Positions 7,442 through 63,971 of a stretch of 64,000 nucleotides of DNA are shown piece after piece. This DNA comes from Patescibacteria group bacterium (lineage in GTDB: Bacteria; Patescibacteriota; Patescibacteriia; Patescibacteriales; JBAZCA01): NCBI GenBank assembly GCA_041661405.1, contig JBAZUL010000003.1, positions 20,707 to 84,706 of the forward strand, read 5' to 3'. A model generated the notes under the pieces. The model saw only the letters and a program-made list of their open reading frames with translations. It was not told the origin of the DNA and did no database searches. Position 1 is the stretch's first letter; every line of letters starts with the position of its first letter. The translations under genes were made by a program, and so were the position numbers.

Positions 7442-9070
7442 TTAAAAATTAAAAATCCGGCGCAGGGAGCATCCCCCGCGCGAACCGCTAAACTCTTTTT
7501 CTGCCCGGCCGCCATTATCTTCCACTTCCTGGGAGGTAAAAAACTTAGAACTGGGAATAAAATTATACGAAGTTTTTTGCTCGCAAAAAAAATCTTTTTC
7601 CTTGATTATTTTACTAATCCAATCTTTAACTATTAAAGAATCATTGTTAATAATAAATTCCCGTTTAAATAAAATATGTGACGGGTCTTTATAGCTGATC
7701 ATTTTTTTTCTTAAAAAATCCTTTAAGAATGCCTGCCAGTTGCTGAATTTCCCGAAGACAATCTGCCAAGTCTTAAATAATATCATAATTGGCGTTTTCA
7801 TTAATGGCTCCTTAATCGGCTTTAACCTTCCGCTCACTGTAAGGCAGCCTTCCTCGCTCGCGATTTCATTAGAGTAGTCAAGCGCGCCGGAAATCAAGCC
7901 TCTCCCTGCTAGCTTAATTTCAACTCCCGAATCAAAATATTGACGGCCTGGTAAATAAAGCCGGAAAGCGCCTCCTTTGTATAGATTGGCCGCGAAATAA
8001 TATTTTTCGGTTTGTCTGATTCTTATGCCGGAATCTTTAAGAAAGATATTAATCCTCCTCGCGGTCAAATAGTCATTAATATCGGCGCGCTGGCTGATGC
8101 CGCTATGGCTCAGAGAAATTCCGGCCTGCAGCCAGTTATATAAAATATAACACAAATAACGGTCATCTAGGCTGGCCGGCCCGATGCCTGATCCGGAAGA
8201 AAGGGAGGCGATGTTAAAAGCAGTAATAATTTTAGCGTTTGCGTCTAAATCCGATAAATAAACAAAGCCTGAAGGAATCAGATACTCGGTATTGCGCGAC
8301 ATATATTCCCCTCCAACGGTAAAATTGGGGTGAAGGAAGTTAATCAGGAAAGCACAAGCGCGCTTAATTGAAATAAGAACATCCTCTCTTTTATCCAGTT
8401 CGTAATATTTCGCGAGATAATCAATCATTAGCGATAAATAGCCGACATCAGGCCCGCCATATTCTCCCCACCAACCTTCCGAAGACTGGCGGCTGATAAT
8501 TAAATTTAATTTTTCACCAGCGGTTTTTAAATATTTTTCACAGCTAGTCAAGAACGAGATTTTAGCTAAGGCAAAAACGCTTCCGGCCAGCTGATTAAAA
8601 ACCGACGTTTCGTTATGTTTAATGAGCCAGTCGGCCGCTTTTTCCAACCCGCCCAATATCTTATCGTAATCTTCAAGTTTTTCTTTTCCCATCAGGCCGA
8701 TTGTTTCCGCCAAAGCCGCGCTCAAGAAAGCCGTGGCCACGTAAGAGCTTTCGTTAATATACCATTCATTAAATGAACCGTCCCTGTTCTGAATTTTTAA
8801 AGCAAAAGAAAGTGAAGCATTAATCCAACCCAGTATTTTTTCACTATGATAATATTTATTTCCCGGAAAATTATGCTTATAAAGCAGAGCAAGAGTTAGC
8901 GCGGCTTCCTGGCAGCGGGCACTACTAATATCATTCGTGCGGTAATGCCAATAATCCCGGTCAAAAGACCCGTAGCTACCGGATAAAGGGTTACGATTTA
9001 GCTGACCCAATAAACGAGGTGCGTTCGCCAAGACTGATGACAAAAAAATGTTTTCAGGGACAGATTTCAT
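7442..9070 (-). CDS. uncharacterised protein, possible alpha/alpha-toroid fold (QW-like repeats)
   Basis: 542 aa with no TM helices or signal peptide. KIQNRDGSFNEWY and SRQSSEGWWGEYGG resemble the Q..DG.W repeats of prenyltransferase/terpene-cyclase-like toroids. The coding call is supported by its length and operon packing. The function is unknown. Confidence 0.6.
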   Translation of the reverse strand: MKSVPENIFLSSVLANAPRLLGQLNRNPLSGSYGSFDRDYWHYRTNDISSARCQEAALTLALLYKHNFPGNKYYHSEKILGWINASLSFALKIQNRDGSFNEWYINESSYVATAFLSAALAETIGLMGKEKLEDYDKILGGLEKAADWLIKHNETSVFNQLAGSVFALAKISFLTSCEKYLKTAGEKLNLIISRQSSEGWWGEYGGPDVGYLSLMIDYLAKYYELDKREDVLISIKRACAFLINFLHPNFTVGGEYMSRNTEYLIPSGFVYLSDLDANAKIITAFNIASLSSGSGIGPASLDDRYLCYILYNWLQAGISLSHSGISQRADINDYLTARRINIFLKDSGIRIRQTEKYYFAANLYKGGAFRLYLPGRQYFDSGVEIKLAGRGLISGALDYSNEIASEEGCLTVSGRLKPIKEPLMKTPIMILFKTWQIVFGKFSNWQAFLKDFLRKKMISYKDPSHILFKREFIINNDSLIVKDWISKIIKEKDFFCEQKTSYNFIPSSKFFTSQEVEDNGGRAEKEFSGSRGGCSLRRIFNF

Positions 9071-15988: not shown

Positions 15989-16000
15989 AGGAAGTTAATT

Positions 16001-16100
16001 TGCGTGCGAGTGCCGAGCGTGCGAGCGAGACATCCCGCAGCCGCAGGCATGCGGGATCCAGCGTGTGAGCAAATTATTGAGCCTGCCCGATCGGAGCGAG
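16001..16100 (-). repeat. GC-rich palindromic intergenic element, copy A
   Basis: It lies between the ackA stop and the start of the glycan operon. The 30-nt block GAGTGCCGAGCGTGCGAGCGAGACATCCCG (16008..16037) and GGCATGCGGGAT (16046..16057) recur at 42925..42954 and 42984..42995. It has an 8-bp hairpin, ATCCCGCA/TGCGGGAT. Confidence 0.7.
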
Positions 16101-16124
16101 GAATAAAAACTCCTTCGCATTAAA

Positions 16125-42897: not shown

Positions 42898-42921
42898 TTT
42901 CCGGGCTAAAAATCAATGATT

Positions 42922-43003
42922 TGCGGGTGCCGAGCGTGTGAGCGAGGCATCCCGTCCCGCCCCGCACTATGCGGGGCGGGAAAGGCATGCGGGATATGGC
43001 ACG
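42922..43003 (-). repeat. GC-rich palindromic intergenic element, copy B
   Basis: GGGTGCCGAGCGTGTGAGCGAGGCATCCCG (42925..42954; 27/30 identical to 16008..16037) and GGCATGCGGGAT (42984..42995; 12/12). Between them is a perfect 12-bp hairpin, TCCCGCCCCGCA-cta-TGCGGGGCGGGA (42955..42981). Confidence 0.8.
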
Positions 43004-58262: not shown

Positions 58263-58362
58263 AATTATATCATTTATCAGGGATGAAAAAAAGGGCAACG
58301 GAGCGTCTCTACAATTTGCGTTTACCGTTTCGCCCGCTATACGCAATCGCCCGGATAATGTC

Positions 58363-58401
58363 CTCCCGCGACTCGCTGACGCTCGCGCGGGACAGGCACG
58401 C
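58363..58401 (-). repeat. GC-rich hairpin element, copy C, abutting the TAG stop of the giant gene
   Basis: The minus strand reads GCGTGCCTGTCCCGCGCGAGCGTCAGCGAGTCGCGGGAG (39 nt). It shares GC(G/T)TGCCTG, CCCGC, TCAGCGAG, GAGTCG and GAGG blocks with copy D at 61821..61877. The hairpin is TCCCGCG/CGCGGGA. Confidence 0.65.
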
Positions 58402-61400
58402 CTATCTCTTGGCTCCGCTATAGGCAATCGCTCTCACAATGTCCCAAGCCATAGCGCTCTTTGGCGCGTAGCCGTAGATGAATTTAAAAGATTTGATGGC
58501 TTGTTTTTCCGAATTCAAATTCCTGTTGGCTGGTCTTAGGCCATAGGAGATTACGGCAATGGCGTTATTGTCGTGAGTATTGGTTTTGTCCGGTTCTCTC
58601 AGATAGATTTTCTTAAACGCCGCCTCGGCGTTCTTCTCAGTCACAGTGTTCTTCTGTCCCGGCCATCTGCCATTGGCGATTTTAATGATATCGTTCCAAT
58701 CGGTTTCGGTTGCCGGGTTTCGGCCAAAGGCCGATTTGAATGAGGCGATGACGCCGGAGCGTTCGCCCGAGCCTAGTATTTTTGTTGTCCCGGTTCCGGC
58801 GGTGATGAAACTGGTTAGAGCGTTTTTGGCTTTTGACGCTATAGCTTTGGCTTCGCTCTGGAGGGTTTCCAGGGCCGGAGTTGCGGTTTTCGGGGTTTCA
58901 CTATTGCTGTTTTTGTTATCATCGCTTCCCTCGCTGGCATTGGCCGCGGTTCCGGAGCTGTCGCCAATATCAGCGCCAGAGCTGTCATCACTGCTTCCAT
59001 CTCCTGTTTCATTATCATCATCGCTTCCGCTGTTCGCGCCAACGGACTGGTTTTGCTGGTTAAAAAGATAGCTGGGAACGGTATTGCAGTCCCGGGTGTA
59101 GGTCAGGGTATTGGAGTTAGTCGTGTTGCCGTTATTATCTAATGCCGCGATATACCAGGTATGGGCGCCGCAGGAGAAGTTTTGGGTTGGGTGTCGGGAG
59201 GTGGCGGTATTCGCGATATTGTCGGTATCCAGGATATTGTCTATGTAGAGCCGATATTTTTCTATGCCGGATTCAGTGTCGGATGAGGCGTTCCAGGAGA
59301 GCGTTGGCCGGGCCTCGGAGTTTACCGTATTATCCGCCGGGGAGGAGAGGGTGAATGAGGAGGGAGCGGCAGTATCTTTTTCCAATGAGAACGTATGGGT
59401 GGAATAGCCGCCCGAGTAGGTGAACTGGATAATACCTGAGGAGTCGGAGAGGCAGGTCAGGTTAGTTCCGTTGCCATAGCTCGTGGAACAAGTAGTATCG
59501 CCATAGCCGGTGATGGCCGTCGTAGTGGCAATATTGTCTATTTTAAATGTGTAGTAGGTACTGGCGAGGAGATCGCCTATTGTGTGGATGGTTGATGTGG
59601 CATGGGTCTGGCCAACGGCAGTGGCGCTAGAGGTCGCAATCCAGGATTTATTCTTGGCTCCGGTGGTTGACCATTCGGTGATGGAGATGTCCATGTAGGC
59701 CGAGGTTGAGGCCGTGTAGTACCCGCCTCCGGCGGGTACTACCGAGAAATTGGAAGTGGCGATAGTTTCAGTGGTGGTAGAGGCGGTTAATGCCCTGTAT
59801 TTGCCGTTAGAGTAGATCCTTATGGAGCCGGTTTTAGGGATGGCGTTCGTTCCCACAGTATAGGGCGGCTGGTACTCATACGCTCCGATGTCGGGGAGAC
59901 CGTAGATCGGGAAACCAGCGTAGTCGGTAGCTAGAGAGACGTCGGTTCCGGCGTCGATGGCGGGACTGTTGTAGGCCAGTTGGAAGTCGGCGGCGGCGGA
60001 GTAGTCGCCATTAGCATTTGTGAAAACAGGATTAGTCACAAAACCATTACTTTCACCGGATGCGCTTTGCCACGCAGTAAAATTTGCGCTCGCTACTCCA
60101 TTCCACATCCACCAAGCACCATCAACCGCATAATTATTATAATCAGCCACTGCAGTCATGCCCGCCGAAAATCTCACATGCCTAGTAGATGGCGTAGATC
60201 CAAAAATATTGTTTTTTATGGTAAAATTATGTCCCGTATAATTTCCTACATAAATACCATTTCCAGCTGTATATCCATAAAAAACATTATCATAAAAAAT
60301 ACCCGCGATACCTCCGGCGACAGTATTGTTATAAATAGAAGAGTTGAAACCATTAATGACATTATTATAAACTGTAACAGTTAAAGTCTGTGAAGTACCC
60401 AAATCAATGCCGTATAGATGATTGATTGTTCCCCCTGACATATAATTTCTATACACTAACCATGCTCCGGTTGGATAAGTATTAGCCCCAATATCCATAC
60501 CTCTCCTCGTATTTGTTATTATATTTCCATATATTTCACATCCTGATCCTCCAAAATCCCCCGCATATATTCCATTTGTATCTCCAGAATCATCTAGTGT
60601 GATAGTATTATTGTAAATCTTAACCGCACTGGAATTTACGCCGCTTACAGCTATACCCGAGTTAGTAGTACTGCCTCTTGTATTAGCCACTTTATTGATA
60701 GTATTTTCGTAAACATTGCCGTTATCTATTCCTTCATTAGTACCTGCGTTTGGTTCAAAATCGACGCCGGCATGTCCGCCACTGATTGTGTTACCAAAAA
60801 TATCCATGCCATCAGCATCAACAACAGCGATTCCTTGCCTGTCGATACTGTCCGCTCCTCCTCCAATTACATTATTACTAATAACAATATCTTCTGGTGT
60901 TTTTTCCGTTGCTATTTCCCAACTCACAAATATTCCATCTCCTTGAGTACCAATTTGTTGAGACTCAATCAAGTTTATTATATTGTTATCAATCGTTACA
61001 TTAGTAGCACCTCTAACGCAAGCGCCATAGCCAGTACCTGATTGAATAGTGTTATTATTTATATTTATGTAATCAGAACCAGGAGTAGCATAAATACCTC
61101 CTCCGTTAGTTGACCCGCTTGCCTCACCTTGAAAATATTCTATTACCAAACCATCTATCGTTATATAATCTTTGTCGTTAGTGCTTATCCCCATTCTTTG
61201 AGCGATTTCAAACGTATTTCCTGAAGGATCACTGCCGAGATATAAATTTCCGCCAGAATATTTCCATTCGTCTGCGCCAAGAGAACCGATTGTTCCTTTA
61301 AGCAAAACTGTACTTCCACGCATAACCCAAAAAGGTTCAGTAGCGTATGCCTTGTTGTACTCCCCATTTCCGTCCGGACCTGTCCAACCAGTGCCATTAT

Positions 61401-61842
61401 CCTGCATGCTGCCGTAAATCTTCGGATCATCCCCGCTCCCAAACGCTCCGAACGTAATTACACTACCGTCCGTCCCCGAAGCCGGAACCGTCAACTGCTC
61501 TCTCCAAGTTTGTCCTTTTCTAAAATAAACAAAGTCGCCAGGCTGAAGAGCAGCAAAAGCATTGATGTCGGCAATGGTTTTGAAGACAGAATCTGTACCG
61601 GTGTCGGTGGCGAAAGTAGTGTGGTCATAGGTGGTAAAATCCGGCGTGGCGCTCCCGACATTAGTGTCAGTCACTGAGGAGTCTACATAATATGTCGCCG
61701 CCTCCGCCCTCCCCGCCCCAAAAACAAAAAAACTTCCCAAAAAAATTGCGAAGAAAAAGACAAAATTAAAGAATCTGAAATTTTTAACTTTGAGATTTGA
61801 TTTTTGATTTTCTGTTAATCCCCCCCCCTGAGCCTGCCTCAT
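58402..61842 (-). CDS. giant secreted right-handed beta-helix protein with FN3-like domain and a repeated C-terminal module
   Basis: The ORF track gives 58402..61929. I prefer ATG 61842 (GAGG 7 nt upstream), giving 1146 aa. The signal peptide is KNFRFFNFVFFFAIFLGSFFVFGAGRAEA/ATYYVDSS. The N-terminal cap (FKTIADINAFAALQPGDFVYFRKGQTWREQLTV) and many PbH1-like turns (NNTI, NNII, GNTI, NNVI) indicate a beta-helix. The FN3-like region is PSSFTLSSPADNTV...PTLSWNASSD...YRLYIDN. An acidic S/D/G linker follows. The C-terminal double repeat ends in WDIVRAIAYSGAKR. Confidence 0.85.
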   Translation of the reverse strand: MRQAQGGGLTENQKSNLKVKNFRFFNFVFFFAIFLGSFFVFGAGRAEAATYYVDSSVTDTNVGSATPDFTTYDHTTFATDTGTDSVFKTIADINAFAALQPGDFVYFRKGQTWREQLTVPASGTDGSVITFGAFGSGDDPKIYGSMQDNGTGWTGPDGNGEYNKAYATEPFWVMRGSTVLLKGTIGSLGADEWKYSGGNLYLGSDPSGNTFEIAQRMGISTNDKDYITIDGLVIEYFQGEASGSTNGGGIYATPGSDYININNNTIQSGTGYGACVRGATNVTIDNNIINLIESQQIGTQGDGIFVSWEIATEKTPEDIVISNNVIGGGADSIDRQGIAVVDADGMDIFGNTISGGHAGVDFEPNAGTNEGIDNGNVYENTINKVANTRGSTTNSGIAVSGVNSSAVKIYNNTITLDDSGDTNGIYAGDFGGSGCEIYGNIITNTRRGMDIGANTYPTGAWLVYRNYMSGGTINHLYGIDLGTSQTLTVTVYNNVINGFNSSIYNNTVAGGIAGIFYDNVFYGYTAGNGIYVGNYTGHNFTIKNNIFGSTPSTRHVRFSAGMTAVADYNNYAVDGAWWMWNGVASANFTAWQSASGESNGFVTNPVFTNANGDYSAAADFQLAYNSPAIDAGTDVSLATDYAGFPIYGLPDIGAYEYQPPYTVGTNAIPKTGSIRIYSNGKYRALTASTTTETIATSNFSVVPAGGGYYTASTSAYMDISITEWSTTGAKNKSWIATSSATAVGQTHATSTIHTIGDLLASTYYTFKIDNIATTTAITGYGDTTCSTSYGNGTNLTCLSDSSGIIQFTYSGGYSTHTFSLEKDTAAPSSFTLSSPADNTVNSEARPTLSWNASSDTESGIEKYRLYIDNILDTDNIANTATSRHPTQNFSCGAHTWYIAALDNNGNTTNSNTLTYTRDCNTVPSYLFNQQNQSVGANSGSDDDNETGDGSSDDSSGADIGDSSGTAANASEGSDDNKNSNSETPKTATPALETLQSEAKAIASKAKNALTSFITAGTGTTKILGSGERSGVIASFKSAFGRNPATETDWNDIIKIANGRWPGQKNTVTEKNAEAAFKKIYLREPDKTNTHDNNAIAVISYGLRPANRNLNSEKQAIKSFKFIYGYAPKSAMAWDIVRAIAYSGAKR

Positions 61843-61877
61843 CGACTCGCCTCGCTGAGTCGAAGCGGGCAGGCAAG
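61821..61877 (-). repeat. GC-rich nested hairpin element, copy D, containing the SD and ATG of the giant gene
   Basis: Outer stem GCCTGCC/GGCAGGC (61832..61838 and 61868..61874). Inner stem TCGACTC/GAGTCGA (61842..61848 and 61857..61863). GAGG lies in the inner loop (61850..61853) and the ATG at 61840..61842. GGCAGGCTCA is shared with copy A. Confidence 0.7.
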
Positions 61878-62036
61878 CTATTTCAGTTTTTGTATATTCT
61901 CTTCTGTTTAGAGACATTCGTTGGAACATGTCTTTGGTTTTAGTTTTCCCGTTCCTTTCTTGTCTTATCTTCCAGCCAAAGGCGCGGGATTGGTTTATGT
62001 ATTTTAAAACTTTCTGGCTTGCTTGGTTCTTGAGTA

Positions 62037-62071
62037 TATTATAGCCGATTATTTCTTCTTTTTCGACAACA
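62037..62071 (-). repeat. 35-bp repeat (copy 1) spanning the last 7 codons, the stop and 12 downstream nt of the RhuM-like gene; contains TATAAT
   Basis: TATTATAGCCGATTATTTCTTCTTTTTCGACAACA is 32/35 identical to 63108..63142. The minus strand reads ...GAAGAAATAATCGGCTATAATA. Confidence 0.85.
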
Positions 62072-63050
62072 GCAATTTTTTCACTTCCCTGTCAAAATCG
62101 GAAATGTAATTTTTATCTTGCTTTTTGCGATATTTTTCAAACTCCGCTCCGGCTTTTTCTTCCGCCTCTTTGGCGCTGATTATTCCGGCGTTGGCTAGCA
62201 ACTTTTTCTCGCTTAATTTCAGAAATTCGTCTAGCTTGGATATCCAGTCTCGCATAGTCATCAGCCGCTCATTGGTAGCCTGAAGTTCCGCGAAATCAAG
62301 ATAAAGCGAGACGATTAAGTTCAGCTGTTTAATTTCTTTTTCCGACAAATAATTTTTGGCAATTTTTATGTCATGAGCGGTAATATAATTTCCCTTAAAA
62401 CTTGTCAGCCCCATCAGCGGCTTTTTGCTGTCGGCTCGTTTCACGATTATCTCGGCCGCCGTGTGCCCATGCACGGCATAATGCATCTTATTTTGCACCG
62501 TGGCGAAAAATTGTTTGGTGTTTTCCGTATCTTTTTTATAATCAACGCTAGTCGCGTAGATATCCGTCACTTTTTGATAAAAGTTTCGCTCGCTGGAACG
62601 GATATCGCGAATTCGCTGTAAAAGTTCCTGGAAATAACGCGCCCGTTCGCCGCCTTGTTTCAGCCGTTCGTCATCCAAAGTAAACCCCTTGATAATATAT
62701 TCCTTTAACCTCTGCGTCGCCCAAATCCGGAACTGGGTGCCTCGCAAAGAATTTATCCGATAACCGACGGAAATAATTGCATCAAGGTTATATAGTTTGA
62801 CTGGGCGGTTTACCGCTCTAACTCCCTCTTTTTGAACTACCGAGGATTCCTCGGATGTTCGATTTTCTTCTAATTCTCTTTCTATGTAAATATTCTTCAG
62901 GTGCAAGGCGACATTATCAATACTGCAATCAAAAAGCTCCGCCATCTGTTTTTGCGTCAGCCACACTGTTTCATGATCCAATTTCACTTCAACCCGGGTC
63001 TTGCCGTCGTCGGTAGTATAAATTATAATTTTATTGCTTTCTTTTTTCAT
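62049..63050 (-). CDS. rhuM: RhuM-family protein
   Basis: 333 aa. IIIYTTDDGKTRVEVKLDHETVWLTQKQMAELF...NVALHLKNIY, YNLDAIISVGYRINSLRGTQFRIWATQRLKEYIIKGF and SSERNFYQKVTDIYATSVDY fit my recollection of the RhuM family pattern. Confidence 0.8.
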   Translation of the reverse strand: MKKESNKIIIYTTDDGKTRVEVKLDHETVWLTQKQMAELFDCSIDNVALHLKNIYIERELEENRTSEESSVVQKEGVRAVNRPVKLYNLDAIISVGYRINSLRGTQFRIWATQRLKEYIIKGFTLDDERLKQGGERARYFQELLQRIRDIRSSERNFYQKVTDIYATSVDYKKDTENTKQFFATVQNKMHYAVHGHTAAEIIVKRADSKKPLMGLTSFKGNYITAHDIKIAKNYLSEKEIKQLNLIVSLYLDFAELQATNERLMTMRDWISKLDEFLKLSEKKLLANAGIISAKEAEEKAGAEFEKYRKKQDKNYISDFDREVKKLLLSKKKK

Positions 63051-63107
63051 AAATCAAACACCGCAAAAAAATCAAACGCAAGCTATTATTAGTTGCTTTG
63101 CTATCTT

Positions 63108-63142
63108 TATTATAGCCAATTATTTCTTCTTCTTCAACAACA
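63108..63142 (-). repeat. 35-bp repeat (copy 2) at the 3' end of the DinD/Bro-N-like gene; TTGAAG-N17-TATAAT promoter-like
   Basis: TATTATAGCCAATTATTTCTTCTTCTTCAACAACA. The minus strand reads TTGAAG aagaagaaataattggc TATAAT, about 60 nt upstream of the RhuM-like ATG. Confidence 0.85.
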
Positions 63143-63971
63143 TCTTCCCATCCGGTTTCCTTAAAAAGTTACCGGAAGATATCACCTTCTTTCCGGTCTT
63201 GCTCTCCAAATCAATCCGCGTTCTCCTCGCCACGCCTCCGCCTCTTCTTCCGGCAAGCTTGTTTTCCTCCATACTATCGGCGTTTTCACTTTGGGCGAAT
63301 TGCCGGGTAGAAAATTCCGCCAGAGCCGTGAAAATCAATTCCGCCTCGCTCATATGGTCGCGCAAATTTTGGGATTTTAGTCCTTTCAGATTTTTATGTT
63401 CCTTTACCGTCAGATCCGACCATTCCTTATGAATAATATTGGTTAGAATAGCAAACTCCTGTTTTTCGGAAATTCCGTGTTCACTCCAGTAATCCGTCAA
63501 TTTATTCCGCGTCTCCTGCCCCATCATCCTCTGCTGGATCCATTTTTGGCTTCGGCCGTGTTTTTTCCAGTTTTCCCGCGCCCGATTCAAAGACCTTTCC
63601 GGATCAGACATTTCCTGCAATCTTTCATAACCGACTTTGGCCAGCCACAATTTTATCGGTTCGGCTTTTTTGGATGGCACGGATTGGATAAGACGAAAAA
63701 TAGTTTCGGGATTAGCGACATCGGTTTCTCTCATTTTTCCATCTTCGGCGATCATTTTCAACCGGTTACATTTTGTAACCGCTTCACTTCCTTCCGCTTT
63801 TAAGCGATTTTTCAAAACTTTCCAATAATTTCTGGCTGCTTGAAAGTCGGGCTGATCCAGTAATGCCCGGATTATGTCCACCACAGAAAAATACCAAATC
63901 TCCGCCTTTTCGTCATAATGCCGGCGAATTTGGAAATTTTCAAAAATCGCTATTTTTGTGTTAGCATCCAT
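63120..63971 (-). CDS. Bro-N domain protein, DinD (DNA-damage-inducible protein D)-like
   Basis: 283 aa. The N-terminal sequence FENFQIRRHYDEKAEIWYFSVVDIIRALL is Bro-N style. The central/C-terminal VKEHKNLKGLKSQNLRDHMSEAELIFTALAEFSTRQ parallels the KEHNK...DHMGSTELAANLF region I recall from E. coli DinD. This was not verified by search. Confidence 0.65.
   Translation of the reverse strand: MDANTKIAIFENFQIRRHYDEKAEIWYFSVVDIIRALLDQPDFQAARNYWKVLKNRLKAEGSEAVTKCNRLKMIAEDGKMRETDVANPETIFRLIQSVPSKKAEPIKLWLAKVGYERLQEMSDPERSLNRARENWKKHGRSQKWIQQRMMGQETRNKLTDYWSEHGISEKQEFAILTNIIHKEWSDLTVKEHKNLKGLKSQNLRDHMSEAELIFTALAEFSTRQFAQSENADSMEENKLAGRRGGGVARRTRIDLESKTGKKVISSGNFLRKPDGKMLLKKKK

Follow-up and report, generated by a model that had tools for sequence, protein, structure and literature searches.

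Does the GC-rich hairpin that encloses a potential start codon of a giant surface-protein gene in this Patescibacteria genome gate translation of that gene, does it mark one edge of a mobile cassette together with a second element at the gene's 3' end, or does it have some other origin? The gene lies on the minus strand of the 64,000-nucleotide stretch analysed here in its entirety (hereafter the window) and encodes a large secreted or anchored beta-helix protein with a widespread, conserved C-terminal module (Table 1). The last 149 amino acids match 1205 protein clusters, all ending in ...AIAYSGA[KT]R*, and homologues of the protein have in common a signal peptide and, after it, ATYYVDSS. A different contig of the MAG encodes a paralogue with more than 90% identity. 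The genes neighbouring the surface-protein gene include FtsK, RhuM and Bro-N, the latter two upstream of it. Where the protein begins is itself a point of disagreement, with NCBI and IMG gene calls for its start differing by ~200 residues and the IMG call taking the hairpin into the coding region.

The architecture of the 5' hairpin (e5) put forward in the original prediction was borne out by direct reading of the minus strand. GCCTGCC (61868-61874) pairs with GGCAGGC (61832-61838) as an outer stem and TCGACTC (61857-61863) with GAGTCGA (61842-61848) as an inner one; GAGG lies 7 nt upstream of an ATG at the stem junction, the A of which is the final base of the inner stem, and a G9 tract follows the hairpin directly. 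The open reading frame stays open through the 20 codons of element and tract. Folding supports the structure: the 50-nt hairpin has a predicted energy of -26.5 kcal/mol (z = -3.2), with none of 200 shuffles as good, and its 101-nt context reaches -28.6 kcal/mol (z = -2.3). Searches against Rfam gave no match at either the gathering threshold or permissive thresholds. A role for e5 as an intrinsic terminator was rejected, as it is followed by G9 and not by a T run. At the other end of the gene, the TAG stop codon (58402-58404) and the 39-nt GC-rich element abutting it (e3) are located where they had been placed, the string originally given for the element being, trivially, one base too long. 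The fold of e3 is no better than its composition predicts (z = -1.1; 30 of 200 shuffles as good), and no relatives of it were found in the other loci compared.

Table 1. Features of the surface-protein gene and its two ends, in window coordinates.
Feature	Position	Strand	Basis
Large secreted/anchored beta-helix surface-protein gene	58402..61929	-	Pfam Beta_helix match
First in-frame ATG of the ORF, favoured start	61927..61929	-	ORF open from here
Second upstream in-frame ATG	61915-61917	-	IMG gene call P0323 starts at 61917
e5, nested GC-rich hairpin, copy of a dispersed palindromic repeat	61829..61878	-	Fold, core identity, covariance-model score
GAGG, Shine-Dalgarno-like	61850..61853	-	Part of invariant repeat core CAGCGAGGCGAG; columns invariant in four-copy alignment
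In-frame ATG inside the hairpin, start proposed earlier	61840..61842	-	Direct reading and four-copy alignment
G9 homopolymer encoding Gly-Gly-Gly, candidate slipped-strand (phase-variation) tract	61820..61828	-	Directly 3' of hairpin
Copy A, canonical last 13 codons and stop (DIVRAIAYSGAKR*)	58402..58443	-	C-terminus same as 150/150 listed homologues
e3, 39-nt GC-rich hairpin (TCCCGCG/CGCGGGA) in 3' UTR	58363..58401	-	Directly after TAG
Copy B, decayed in-frame second gene end, DIIRAIAYSG(A)KR*, with 1-nt deletion	58322..58362	-	Direct reading
Terminator-like stem GGGCG..ACGG / CCGTTGCCC, then T7	58286..58335	-	In MFE and centroid structures

The nature of e5 is best approached through its relatives. 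The suggestion that the 5' hairpin belongs to a repeat family is upheld by near-identical cores in other genomes and unrelated contexts: a conserved 32-nt core (61846-61877; CCTGCCTGCCCGCTTYGACTCAGCGAGGCGAG) recurs, with 31-32 of 32 bases identical and unrelated flanks, in L066 and in L128 (= L129 = L130), L066 and L129/L130 being unrelated low-GC contigs. The copy in L066 is intergenic, between divergent genes. That in L128, a single observation, is 45 nt long and lies in-frame in the 3' tail of a gene for a RAYT-like Y1 transposase (best NCBIfam match REP_Tyr_transpos, 55.8 bits), where, as a 15-codon insert relative to homologues, it splits the conserved C-terminus (WERDRN[LPARFDSARRAGETG]NLEDMRI vs WERDRNNVENLWM in homologues). 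A diverged copy forms an 18-codon GC island in-frame in gyrB of the L128-L130 organism and is read in the same QRGE frame as in the surface-protein gene. The repeat therefore exists outside the source genome and inserts in-frame in other genes, three of the five known sites being inside coding regions. In an alignment of four copies the element spans 45-60 nt, and all four fold into imperfect hairpins with energies between -19 and -27 kcal/mol. When four clear relatives of e5 were used to build a covariance model, it scored family copies at 60-79 bits and matched e5 itself (61830-61880, minus strand) at 64 bits.

Copies of the repeat are few. One significant copy is present in the 64-kb window, no second was found by the covariance model in 169 kb, and the L129/L130 organism carries 1-2 per 17 kb. 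Wider scans added little: a loose two-gap pattern run over a genome collection returned, among the matches listed, mostly chance occurrences in high-GC genomes, with only L066 informative, and a tighter pattern run over metagenomes gave five chance matches and one real one. Scans of viral contigs yielded nothing relevant for this element, and BLAST against plasmids and phages gave nothing, or only chance matches to haloviruses. A motif-profile protein search with the e5 peptide in its present frame produced no further match, which suggests that in-frame copies of this type are rare. Mobility, as originally proposed, is plausible for the 5' repeat itself, judging by where its copies lie and not by a comparison of occupied and empty orthologous sites in the source genome; for the 3.4-kb gene as a bracketed cassette it is unsupported.

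We therefore favour, at a probability of roughly 60%, the reading that e5 belongs to a dispersed family of palindromic repeats, lies in-frame inside the gene and is read through from an upstream start, and that e3 is not its partner in a cassette. A non-autonomous, GC-rich palindromic repeat of ~45-52 nt, resembling the selfish REP and RPE elements and occurring sporadically in low-GC, Patescibacteria-type genomes, would have landed in-frame within the first 40 codons of the surface beta-helix gene, where e5 and G9 together would lengthen the cytoplasmic n-region that precedes the membrane-spanning signal segment by 20 residues (ACLPASTQRGESMRQAQGGG). Translation would most likely begin at one of the two upstream ATGs (61929 or 61917), with elongating ribosomes passing through the hairpin; GAGG would then be a component of the invariant core, the ATG at 61842 a quirk of the present copy, and e3 (58363-58401) a separate 3' UTR hairpin. 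The insertion is presumably neutral. Nothing equivalent to the 20 extra residues is present in the homologues, many of which have long n-regions.

The context of the candidate starts bears directly on this reading. Folded from -30 to +30, the sequence around the ATG at 61842 reaches -23.3 kcal/mol, below all 49 ORF starts in the window; the other start windows average -5.2 +/- 3.1 kcal/mol with a minimum of -14.4, leaving 61842 more structured than other starts by 5.8 SD and its context atypical for the source genome. The corresponding values for the two upstream ATGs are -6.6 (61929) and -5.1 kcal/mol (61917), typical for this genome and set in an AT-rich context, and it is from such context that an upstream start codon would be chosen.

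A translational gate, the alternative first proposed for this locus, would take the ATG at 61842 as the real start and GAGG as its ribosome-binding site, both masked by the hairpin, so that melting or unwinding would control expression in the manner of a thermometer, a helicase-dependent switch or translational coupling. The 7-nt spacing, the paired A at the stem junction and a stability beyond that of shuffled sequences are all consistent with this model, as is the fact that the ATG occurs only in the present copy (GCA or GCG in the others), the 3' half of which approaches a perfect palindrome more closely than in other copies, which could reflect selection. Moreover, P0008, the closest homologue by N-terminus, begins roughly where e5 ends, and a start near e5 is thus not absurd. 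In holding GAGG and AUG within a stable stem-loop, e5 also resembles the hairpins that sequester Shine-Dalgarno sequence and AUG in RNA thermometers and translational operators. Unlike these, however, it has no conserved counterpart in front of homologous genes (those of L135 and L137 begin in plain AT-rich sequence with no such hairpin), it matches no Rfam family, and it resides in a Shine-Dalgarno-poor host, in which a Shine-Dalgarno-like motif accompanies only 4 of the window's 49 ORF starts. Its GAGG, furthermore, is invariant across copies of the repeat, intergenic and in-frame alike, and so also occurs where there is no start, whilst two upstream in-frame ATGs with normal start context compete with an ATG buried in exceptional structure. 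A gate is on these grounds unsupported, and we regard it as unlikely.

The G9 tract may instead be the functional feature, with slipped-strand mispairing toggling the surface protein and the hairpin incidental, a reading compatible with that of an in-frame repeat copy. It is the sole run of at least eight G or C in 64 kb, against ~0.15 expected from composition, and lies within the 5' coding end of the gene, between the candidate starts, all of which precede it, and the signal segment. Poly-G contingency loci occur in surface-protein genes of Neisseria, Haemophilus and Campylobacter, and the position of the tract at the 5' coding end of such a gene recalls them. In contrast to those loci, G9 is here a single assembled sequence, so that length variation is only a candidate property, and the G run is absent from the other copies of the repeat. 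We know of no demonstration of phase variation by such a tract in Patescibacteria, and this reading is decidedly unlikely. One further reading, highly improbable as a whole, is that the e5-type repeats are an undescribed family of palindromes tolerated in-frame by Patescibacteria and that e5 has here been co-opted, its hairpin-masked internal start and the slippage-prone G9 beside it together acting as a phase-variable switch, with two starts, of a major surface protein.

The original prediction further held that e5 and e3 are direct copies of one repeat, of which the window would hold four, and that they could mark a cassette that moves or recombines. In such a reading the 3.4-kb gene would have been inserted or exchanged in one piece. 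The pairwise part of the claim finds some support: local alignment of e5 and e3 scores 25, against 13.8 +/- 2.5 for dinucleotide shuffles (p about 0.0015-0.004), with similarity in the same orientation only. The covariance model, on the other hand, gives e3 9.8 bits (E = 4.7 in 169 kb), and the relatedness of the two, as read from these alignments, is suggested rather than established, with e3 a distant relative at best. Nor do the four elements form one family, since there is a clear relationship between those at 16002-16105 and 42921-42995 (p<0.001), and both have only weak, patchy similarity to e5 and e3. The shared orientation of e5 and e3 and their pairwise p of about 0.002-0.004 would suit a cassette, as would the paralogue on another contig, the RhuM and Bro-N genes upstream and a decayed copy of the last 14 codons beyond e3, the type of scar expected from replacement. 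Yet e3 has no significant family match and is without relatives in other loci, the other copies of the e5 family are solitary, within or between genes and never around them, no recombinase was found among the nine genes scanned, and L134 has the same layout of gene end, element and remnant with different intervening elements. Bracketing by direct copies is consequently unsupported and a cassette extremely improbable; an integron attC or gene cassette in particular was rejected, as direct reading of e5 and e3 revealed no RYYYAAC ... GTTRRRY core sites. That e5 is a chance GC-rich palindrome without relatives, which the many GC-rich stretches of the window and the almost exclusively chance, high-GC matches among those listed for the loose pattern might have encouraged, is already refuted by its core identity in two unrelated low-GC contigs and by the covariance-model scores; the fold, better than that of all 200 shuffles, also speaks against it.

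Amongst known repeats, e5 is closest in kind to three groups. Firstly, there are the sequences of REP/REPIN-RAYT systems, ~20-50 nt long and mobilised by REP-associated tyrosine transposases (RAYTs), which are IS200/IS605-like Y1 HUH enzymes. Like these sequences, e5 is a small, imperfect, GC-rich palindrome scattered over unrelated loci without detected target-site duplication or other insertion signature (repeats in the flanks are no better than in shuffled flanks, p = 0.16-0.56); a RAYT-like gene carries one copy in its tail, and classical-looking REPs (GTAGAGACGC...GCGTCTCTAC) are abundant beside and inside RAYT genes at related Patescibacteria loci. REPs and REPINs occur in many copies per genome, overwhelmingly extragenic and often as inverted doublets; their hairpins have a conserved GTAG tetranucleotide at the side, and the genome holds one RAYT gene with REPs around it. 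The e5-type repeat differs in that its apparent copy number is very low, unlike the high number expected of a classical REP, in that copies lie inside coding regions, and in that no inverted doublets were seen among the known copies. There is, moreover, no conserved GTAG at its hairpins in the alignment (only the L066 copy has GTAG, on the reverse strand), and neither a RAYT nor any other Y1 transposase is encoded in the 64-kb window. The GTAG-flanked repeats of L134 and L139 are a class different from e5. The RAYT homologues of L139 and L141 are tightly packed among housekeeping genes, and the idea that RAYT genes are regularly flanked by e5-type copies was discarded, as GTAG-type REPs are found there instead.

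Secondly, Rickettsia palindromic elements (RPEs) are reportedly (Ogata et al. 2000) selfish palindromes that lie in-frame in protein-coding genes; they are about 100-150 bp long. The e5-type element likewise is in-frame, a multiple of three and stop-free in a RAYT-like gene, gyrB and the surface-protein gene, adding a short peptide in a tolerant region in each. It is 2-3 times shorter (45-60 nt vs about 100-150 bp) and comes from a different phylum, and it is not known to be related to RPEs in sequence. Thirdly, MITEs such as the Correia elements of Neisseria can create promoters or alter the translation of neighbouring genes. As a small, non-autonomous palindromic repeat, e5 is comparable, being able to insert at the edges of genes and to supply expression signals by accident; it differs in being much shorter and in having neither target-site duplication nor terminal inverted repeats apart from the hairpin itself.

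If e5 is indeed such a repeat, the apparent 'start codon in a hairpin' would be a selfish element that has landed in a gene and not a dedicated regulatory RNA, which should temper similar calls in genomes of this type. In-frame GC-rich palindromes in Patescibacteria genes (gyrB, RAYT-like) echo the RPEs, and we found no description of such repeats for Patescibacteria in the searchable literature. Insertions of this kind affect gene calling, and may account for some of the protein insertions frequently reported from the reduced genomes of Patescibacteria.

Directly beyond e3, the last 14 codons of the surface-protein gene recur in decayed form (copy B). L134 holds a comparable gene-end remnant with the same deletion, arranged there as gene end, GC-rich or REP sequence and remnant; the homologues L135 and L137 have none. 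An origin of the duplication through a diversity-generating retroelement (VR/TR) was rejected, since the two copies do not differ specifically at adenines. Overlapping copy B, the terminator-like stem has an energy no better than that of shuffled sequences, and its loop contains half a copy of the GTAG-type REP, GTAGAGACGC, at 58303-58312.

The hairpin near the 5' end of the beta-helix surface-protein gene is real and its best explanation is an ordinary one: the element (hereafter e5) is one among the copies of a dispersed repeat, and would represent a small palindromic selfish repeat of a known class, lying in-frame near the 5' end of this gene. The stems, GAGG, ATG and G9 tract placed by the original prediction all match the sequence of the minus strand, on which all genes in the window lie, exactly, and its claim of a stable nested hairpin at the gene start is sound: the 50 nt of e5 fold at -26.5 kcal/mol against -17.6 +/- 2.8 for dinucleotide shuffles (z = -3.2), with none of 200 shuffles folding as well. 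A pattern scan of public genomes, in which chance matches in high-GC genomes dominate, gave among the matches listed a low-GC contig (L066) carrying CCTGCCTGCCCGCTTCGACTCAGCGAGGCGAG, which shares 31 of 32 bases with e5 and is situated in an AT-rich intergenic region separating divergent genes. A tighter pattern applied to a metagenome collection yielded one real match, L128 (38% GC; L129 to L133 are further representatives of the same organism), the other five being chance matches on contigs of 64-73% GC. Flanks are unrelated among these three copies. When they are aligned with a fourth, diverged copy inside gyrB of L129, the block CAGCGAGGCGAG is invariant and the 5' half is conserved; the 3' halves are variable, yet the imperfect hairpin still closes. 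A covariance model built from the four copies scores those same four at 60-79 bits, and in 169 kb of sequence it returned no match beyond them better than E = 0.1.

Features of the surface-protein gene, its GC-rich elements and related repeats (window coordinates unless a locus is named)
Feature	Position	Strand	Remark
Beta-helix surface-protein ORF	58402-61929	-	1175 residues; Pfam PF13229 match
e5 outer stem	GCCTGCC 61868-61874 / GGCAGGC 61832-61838	-	direct reading
e5 inner stem	TCGACTC 61857-61863 / GAGTCGA 61842-61848	-	direct reading
GAGG	61850-61853	-	direct reading; 7 nt before ATG
ATG within e5	61840-61842	-	direct reading
G9 tract	61820-61828	-	direct reading
Copy A, the gene's own end	58402-58443	-	canonical vs module clusters
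Copy B, decayed second copy of last 14 codons	58322-58362	-	directly after 3' element, in frame with gene
Second GC-rich repeat family	16002-16105, 42921-42995	+ as written (genes -)	33 nt at 91% + 13 nt at 100% identity
GTAGAGACGC-N4-8-GCGTCTCTAC REPs	L134 5082-5131, 5451-5478, 7948-7976, 8460-8597; L139 9889-9980, 10283-10362		

Insertion into coding sequence is not confined to the window. The 45-nt copy in L128 falls within the last codons of a gene encoding a homologue of Y1 (IS200-like) transposases (Pfam Y1_Tnp, E = 3e-7), for which the best NCBIfam match, REP-associated tyrosine transposase, reaches 55.8 bits, below the curated cut-off of 80. More than 100 homologues of this transposase end ...WERDRNNVENLWM; the L128 C-terminus reads WERDRN[LPARFDSARRAGETG]NLEDMRI, a clean 15-codon in-frame insertion by comparison. 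In gyrB of the same organism, an 18-codon GC island (ARLAALPELQRGEVARQG) can be aligned to the e5-type repeat and is read in the frame of the window copy (QRGE). Another, classical-looking REP class, GTAGAGACGC-N4-8-GCGTCTCTAC, is abundant in related Patescibacteria loci: in L139 it lies beside a RAYT-like gene and in-frame within it, and in L134 it occurs within the surface-protein gene. The window has a single half copy (58303-58312). As palindromes of both types are found inside coding regions, in-frame palindromic insertion seems habitual in these genomes. The same gyrB contains a second GC island (DEREAGKEPASPAGR; L129 8447-8489) with a CCTGCC...GGCAGG hairpin, and stems of this type are shared by otherwise different elements: e5, a hairpin upstream of the RAYT gene in L128, and window positions 16081-16089.

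Like REPs and RPEs, e5 is short, palindromic, dispersed and tolerated in-frame. Unlike REPs, its copies have no conserved GTAG; the number of copies observed is low, and there is no RAYT within the window. For an RPE it is too short. No Rfam family matched e5, no target duplication was found flanking the e5-type element, and the searchable literature gave no description of REP-like elements in the Patescibacteria phylum. By the criteria for an attC site or a terminator, e5 is neither.

Whether e5 is translated depends on the start codon. Three in-frame ATGs (61929, 61917 and 61842) precede the membrane segment, with no further ATG, GTG or TTG in the ORF ahead of it. The original prediction took the third, within e5, as the start, with the hairpin as a possible gate on translation. 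This start, though the less likely, is credible, as P0008, the homologue most similar at the N-terminus, begins about where e5 ends. The gate is conceivable but not supported: intergenic and in-frame copies of the repeat both carry the GAGG found before 61842, as part of their invariant core; only 4 of 49 ORF starts in the window have GGAG, GAGG or AGGA 4-17 nt upstream; and e5 does not pass as a conserved translational operator. Leaders in the window are AT-rich, and most initiation in this organism appears to proceed with no Shine-Dalgarno pairing. The 61-nt start windows of the 49 ORFs are nearly unstructured (-5.2 +/- 3.1 kcal/mol, minimum -14.4; 31% GC); that of 61842, at -23.3 kcal/mol and 66% GC, is lower than all of them, whereas those of 61929 and 61917 are typical (-6.6 and -5.1 kcal/mol). 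Homologues often have long positively charged n-regions (e.g. P0014, P0017 and P0044). No counterpart of ACLPASTQRGESMRQAQGGG was found among those compared, and IMG places the start at ATG 61917 (1171 aa), including e5 in the protein. On these grounds we favour an upstream start, inferred from context, with e5 translated as a 20-residue insertion. Public annotations of this gene differ: the NCBI start is Met203 (973 aa, MFA6106409.1), so that the signal peptide is lost together with ATYYVDSS, the conserved motif that follows the N-terminal membrane or signal segment and is common to many homologues.

The G9 tract is the sole run of at least eight G or C in the 64 kb, against a composition expectation of about 0.15, and is located in the 5' coding end of the gene, between the last of the candidate starts and the signal segment. 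Such a position is classic for a slipped-strand contingency tract, and G9 is offered as a lead, a candidate phase-variation tract. No other copy in the four-copy alignment has a G run.

The gene had also been proposed to be a cassette delimited by direct copies of one repeat family, e5 and the 39-nt element after the TAG stop (e3, 58363-58401). Pairwise, a weak resemblance is seen: local alignment of the two scores 25 against 13.8 +/- 2.5 for shuffles (p = 0.0015-0.004), in the same orientation only. Membership of one family is not supported, with e3 scoring just 9.8 bits (E = 4.7) under the e5-family covariance model. As e3 also has no match in the related loci compared and e5-type copies elsewhere are solitary, the bracketed cassette is not supported. 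The 7-bp GC stem of e3 folds no better than shuffles (z = -1.1), and elsewhere among the window's GC-rich elements several pairs are equally weakly similar (p = 0.003-0.03), for example e5 with 16061-16108 and e3 with 16000-16060. Rather than being copies of a single unit, these elements seem to have short modules in common, among them GCCTGCCCG and AGCGAG. Of the four window elements predicted to form a single family, the two intergenic ones at 16 and 42 kb are clear copies of each other, but of a family separate from that of e5. Their shared blocks surround a hairpin, ATCCCGCA...TGCGGGAT, and each ends 14-24 nt before the ATG of the following gene (15988 and 42897). In the 42921 copy an extra perfect hairpin (TCCCGCCCCGCA-cta-TGCGGGGCGGGA) is nested within this one, giving the impression of a palindrome inserted into another.

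At the 3' end, the last 14 codons of the gene are present twice, once on each side of e3. The module made up by the final 149 residues is very widespread: it matches 1205 clusters at 50% identity, invariably at the very C-terminus, and every match ends ...AWDIVRAIAYSGA[KT]R*, which identifies copy A as canonical. Copy B encodes DIIRAIAYSG followed by GGGCGAAACGGTAA, and its tail would read SGAKR* were 1 nt not deleted; the same tail supplies the 5' arm of a stem that resembles a terminator and has T7 after it (58286-58335). The same layout recurs in L134, a non-syntenic homologue, at 8400-8600: gene end, REP and GC-rich sequence, a remnant with the same deletion as copy B, and a GTAGAGACGC REP. 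Homologues in L135 and L137 have clean gene ends. A partial paralogue, MFA6106493.1 (247 aa), more than 90% identical, is located at a contig end elsewhere in the same MAG, making recombination between paralogues a plausible source of the duplicated-end scar. GC content and GC skew change between positions 58 and 60 kb in the window, and immediately upstream of the surface-protein gene are RhuM-family and Bro-N-domain genes (62049-63971), kinds of gene frequent in prophages or islands.
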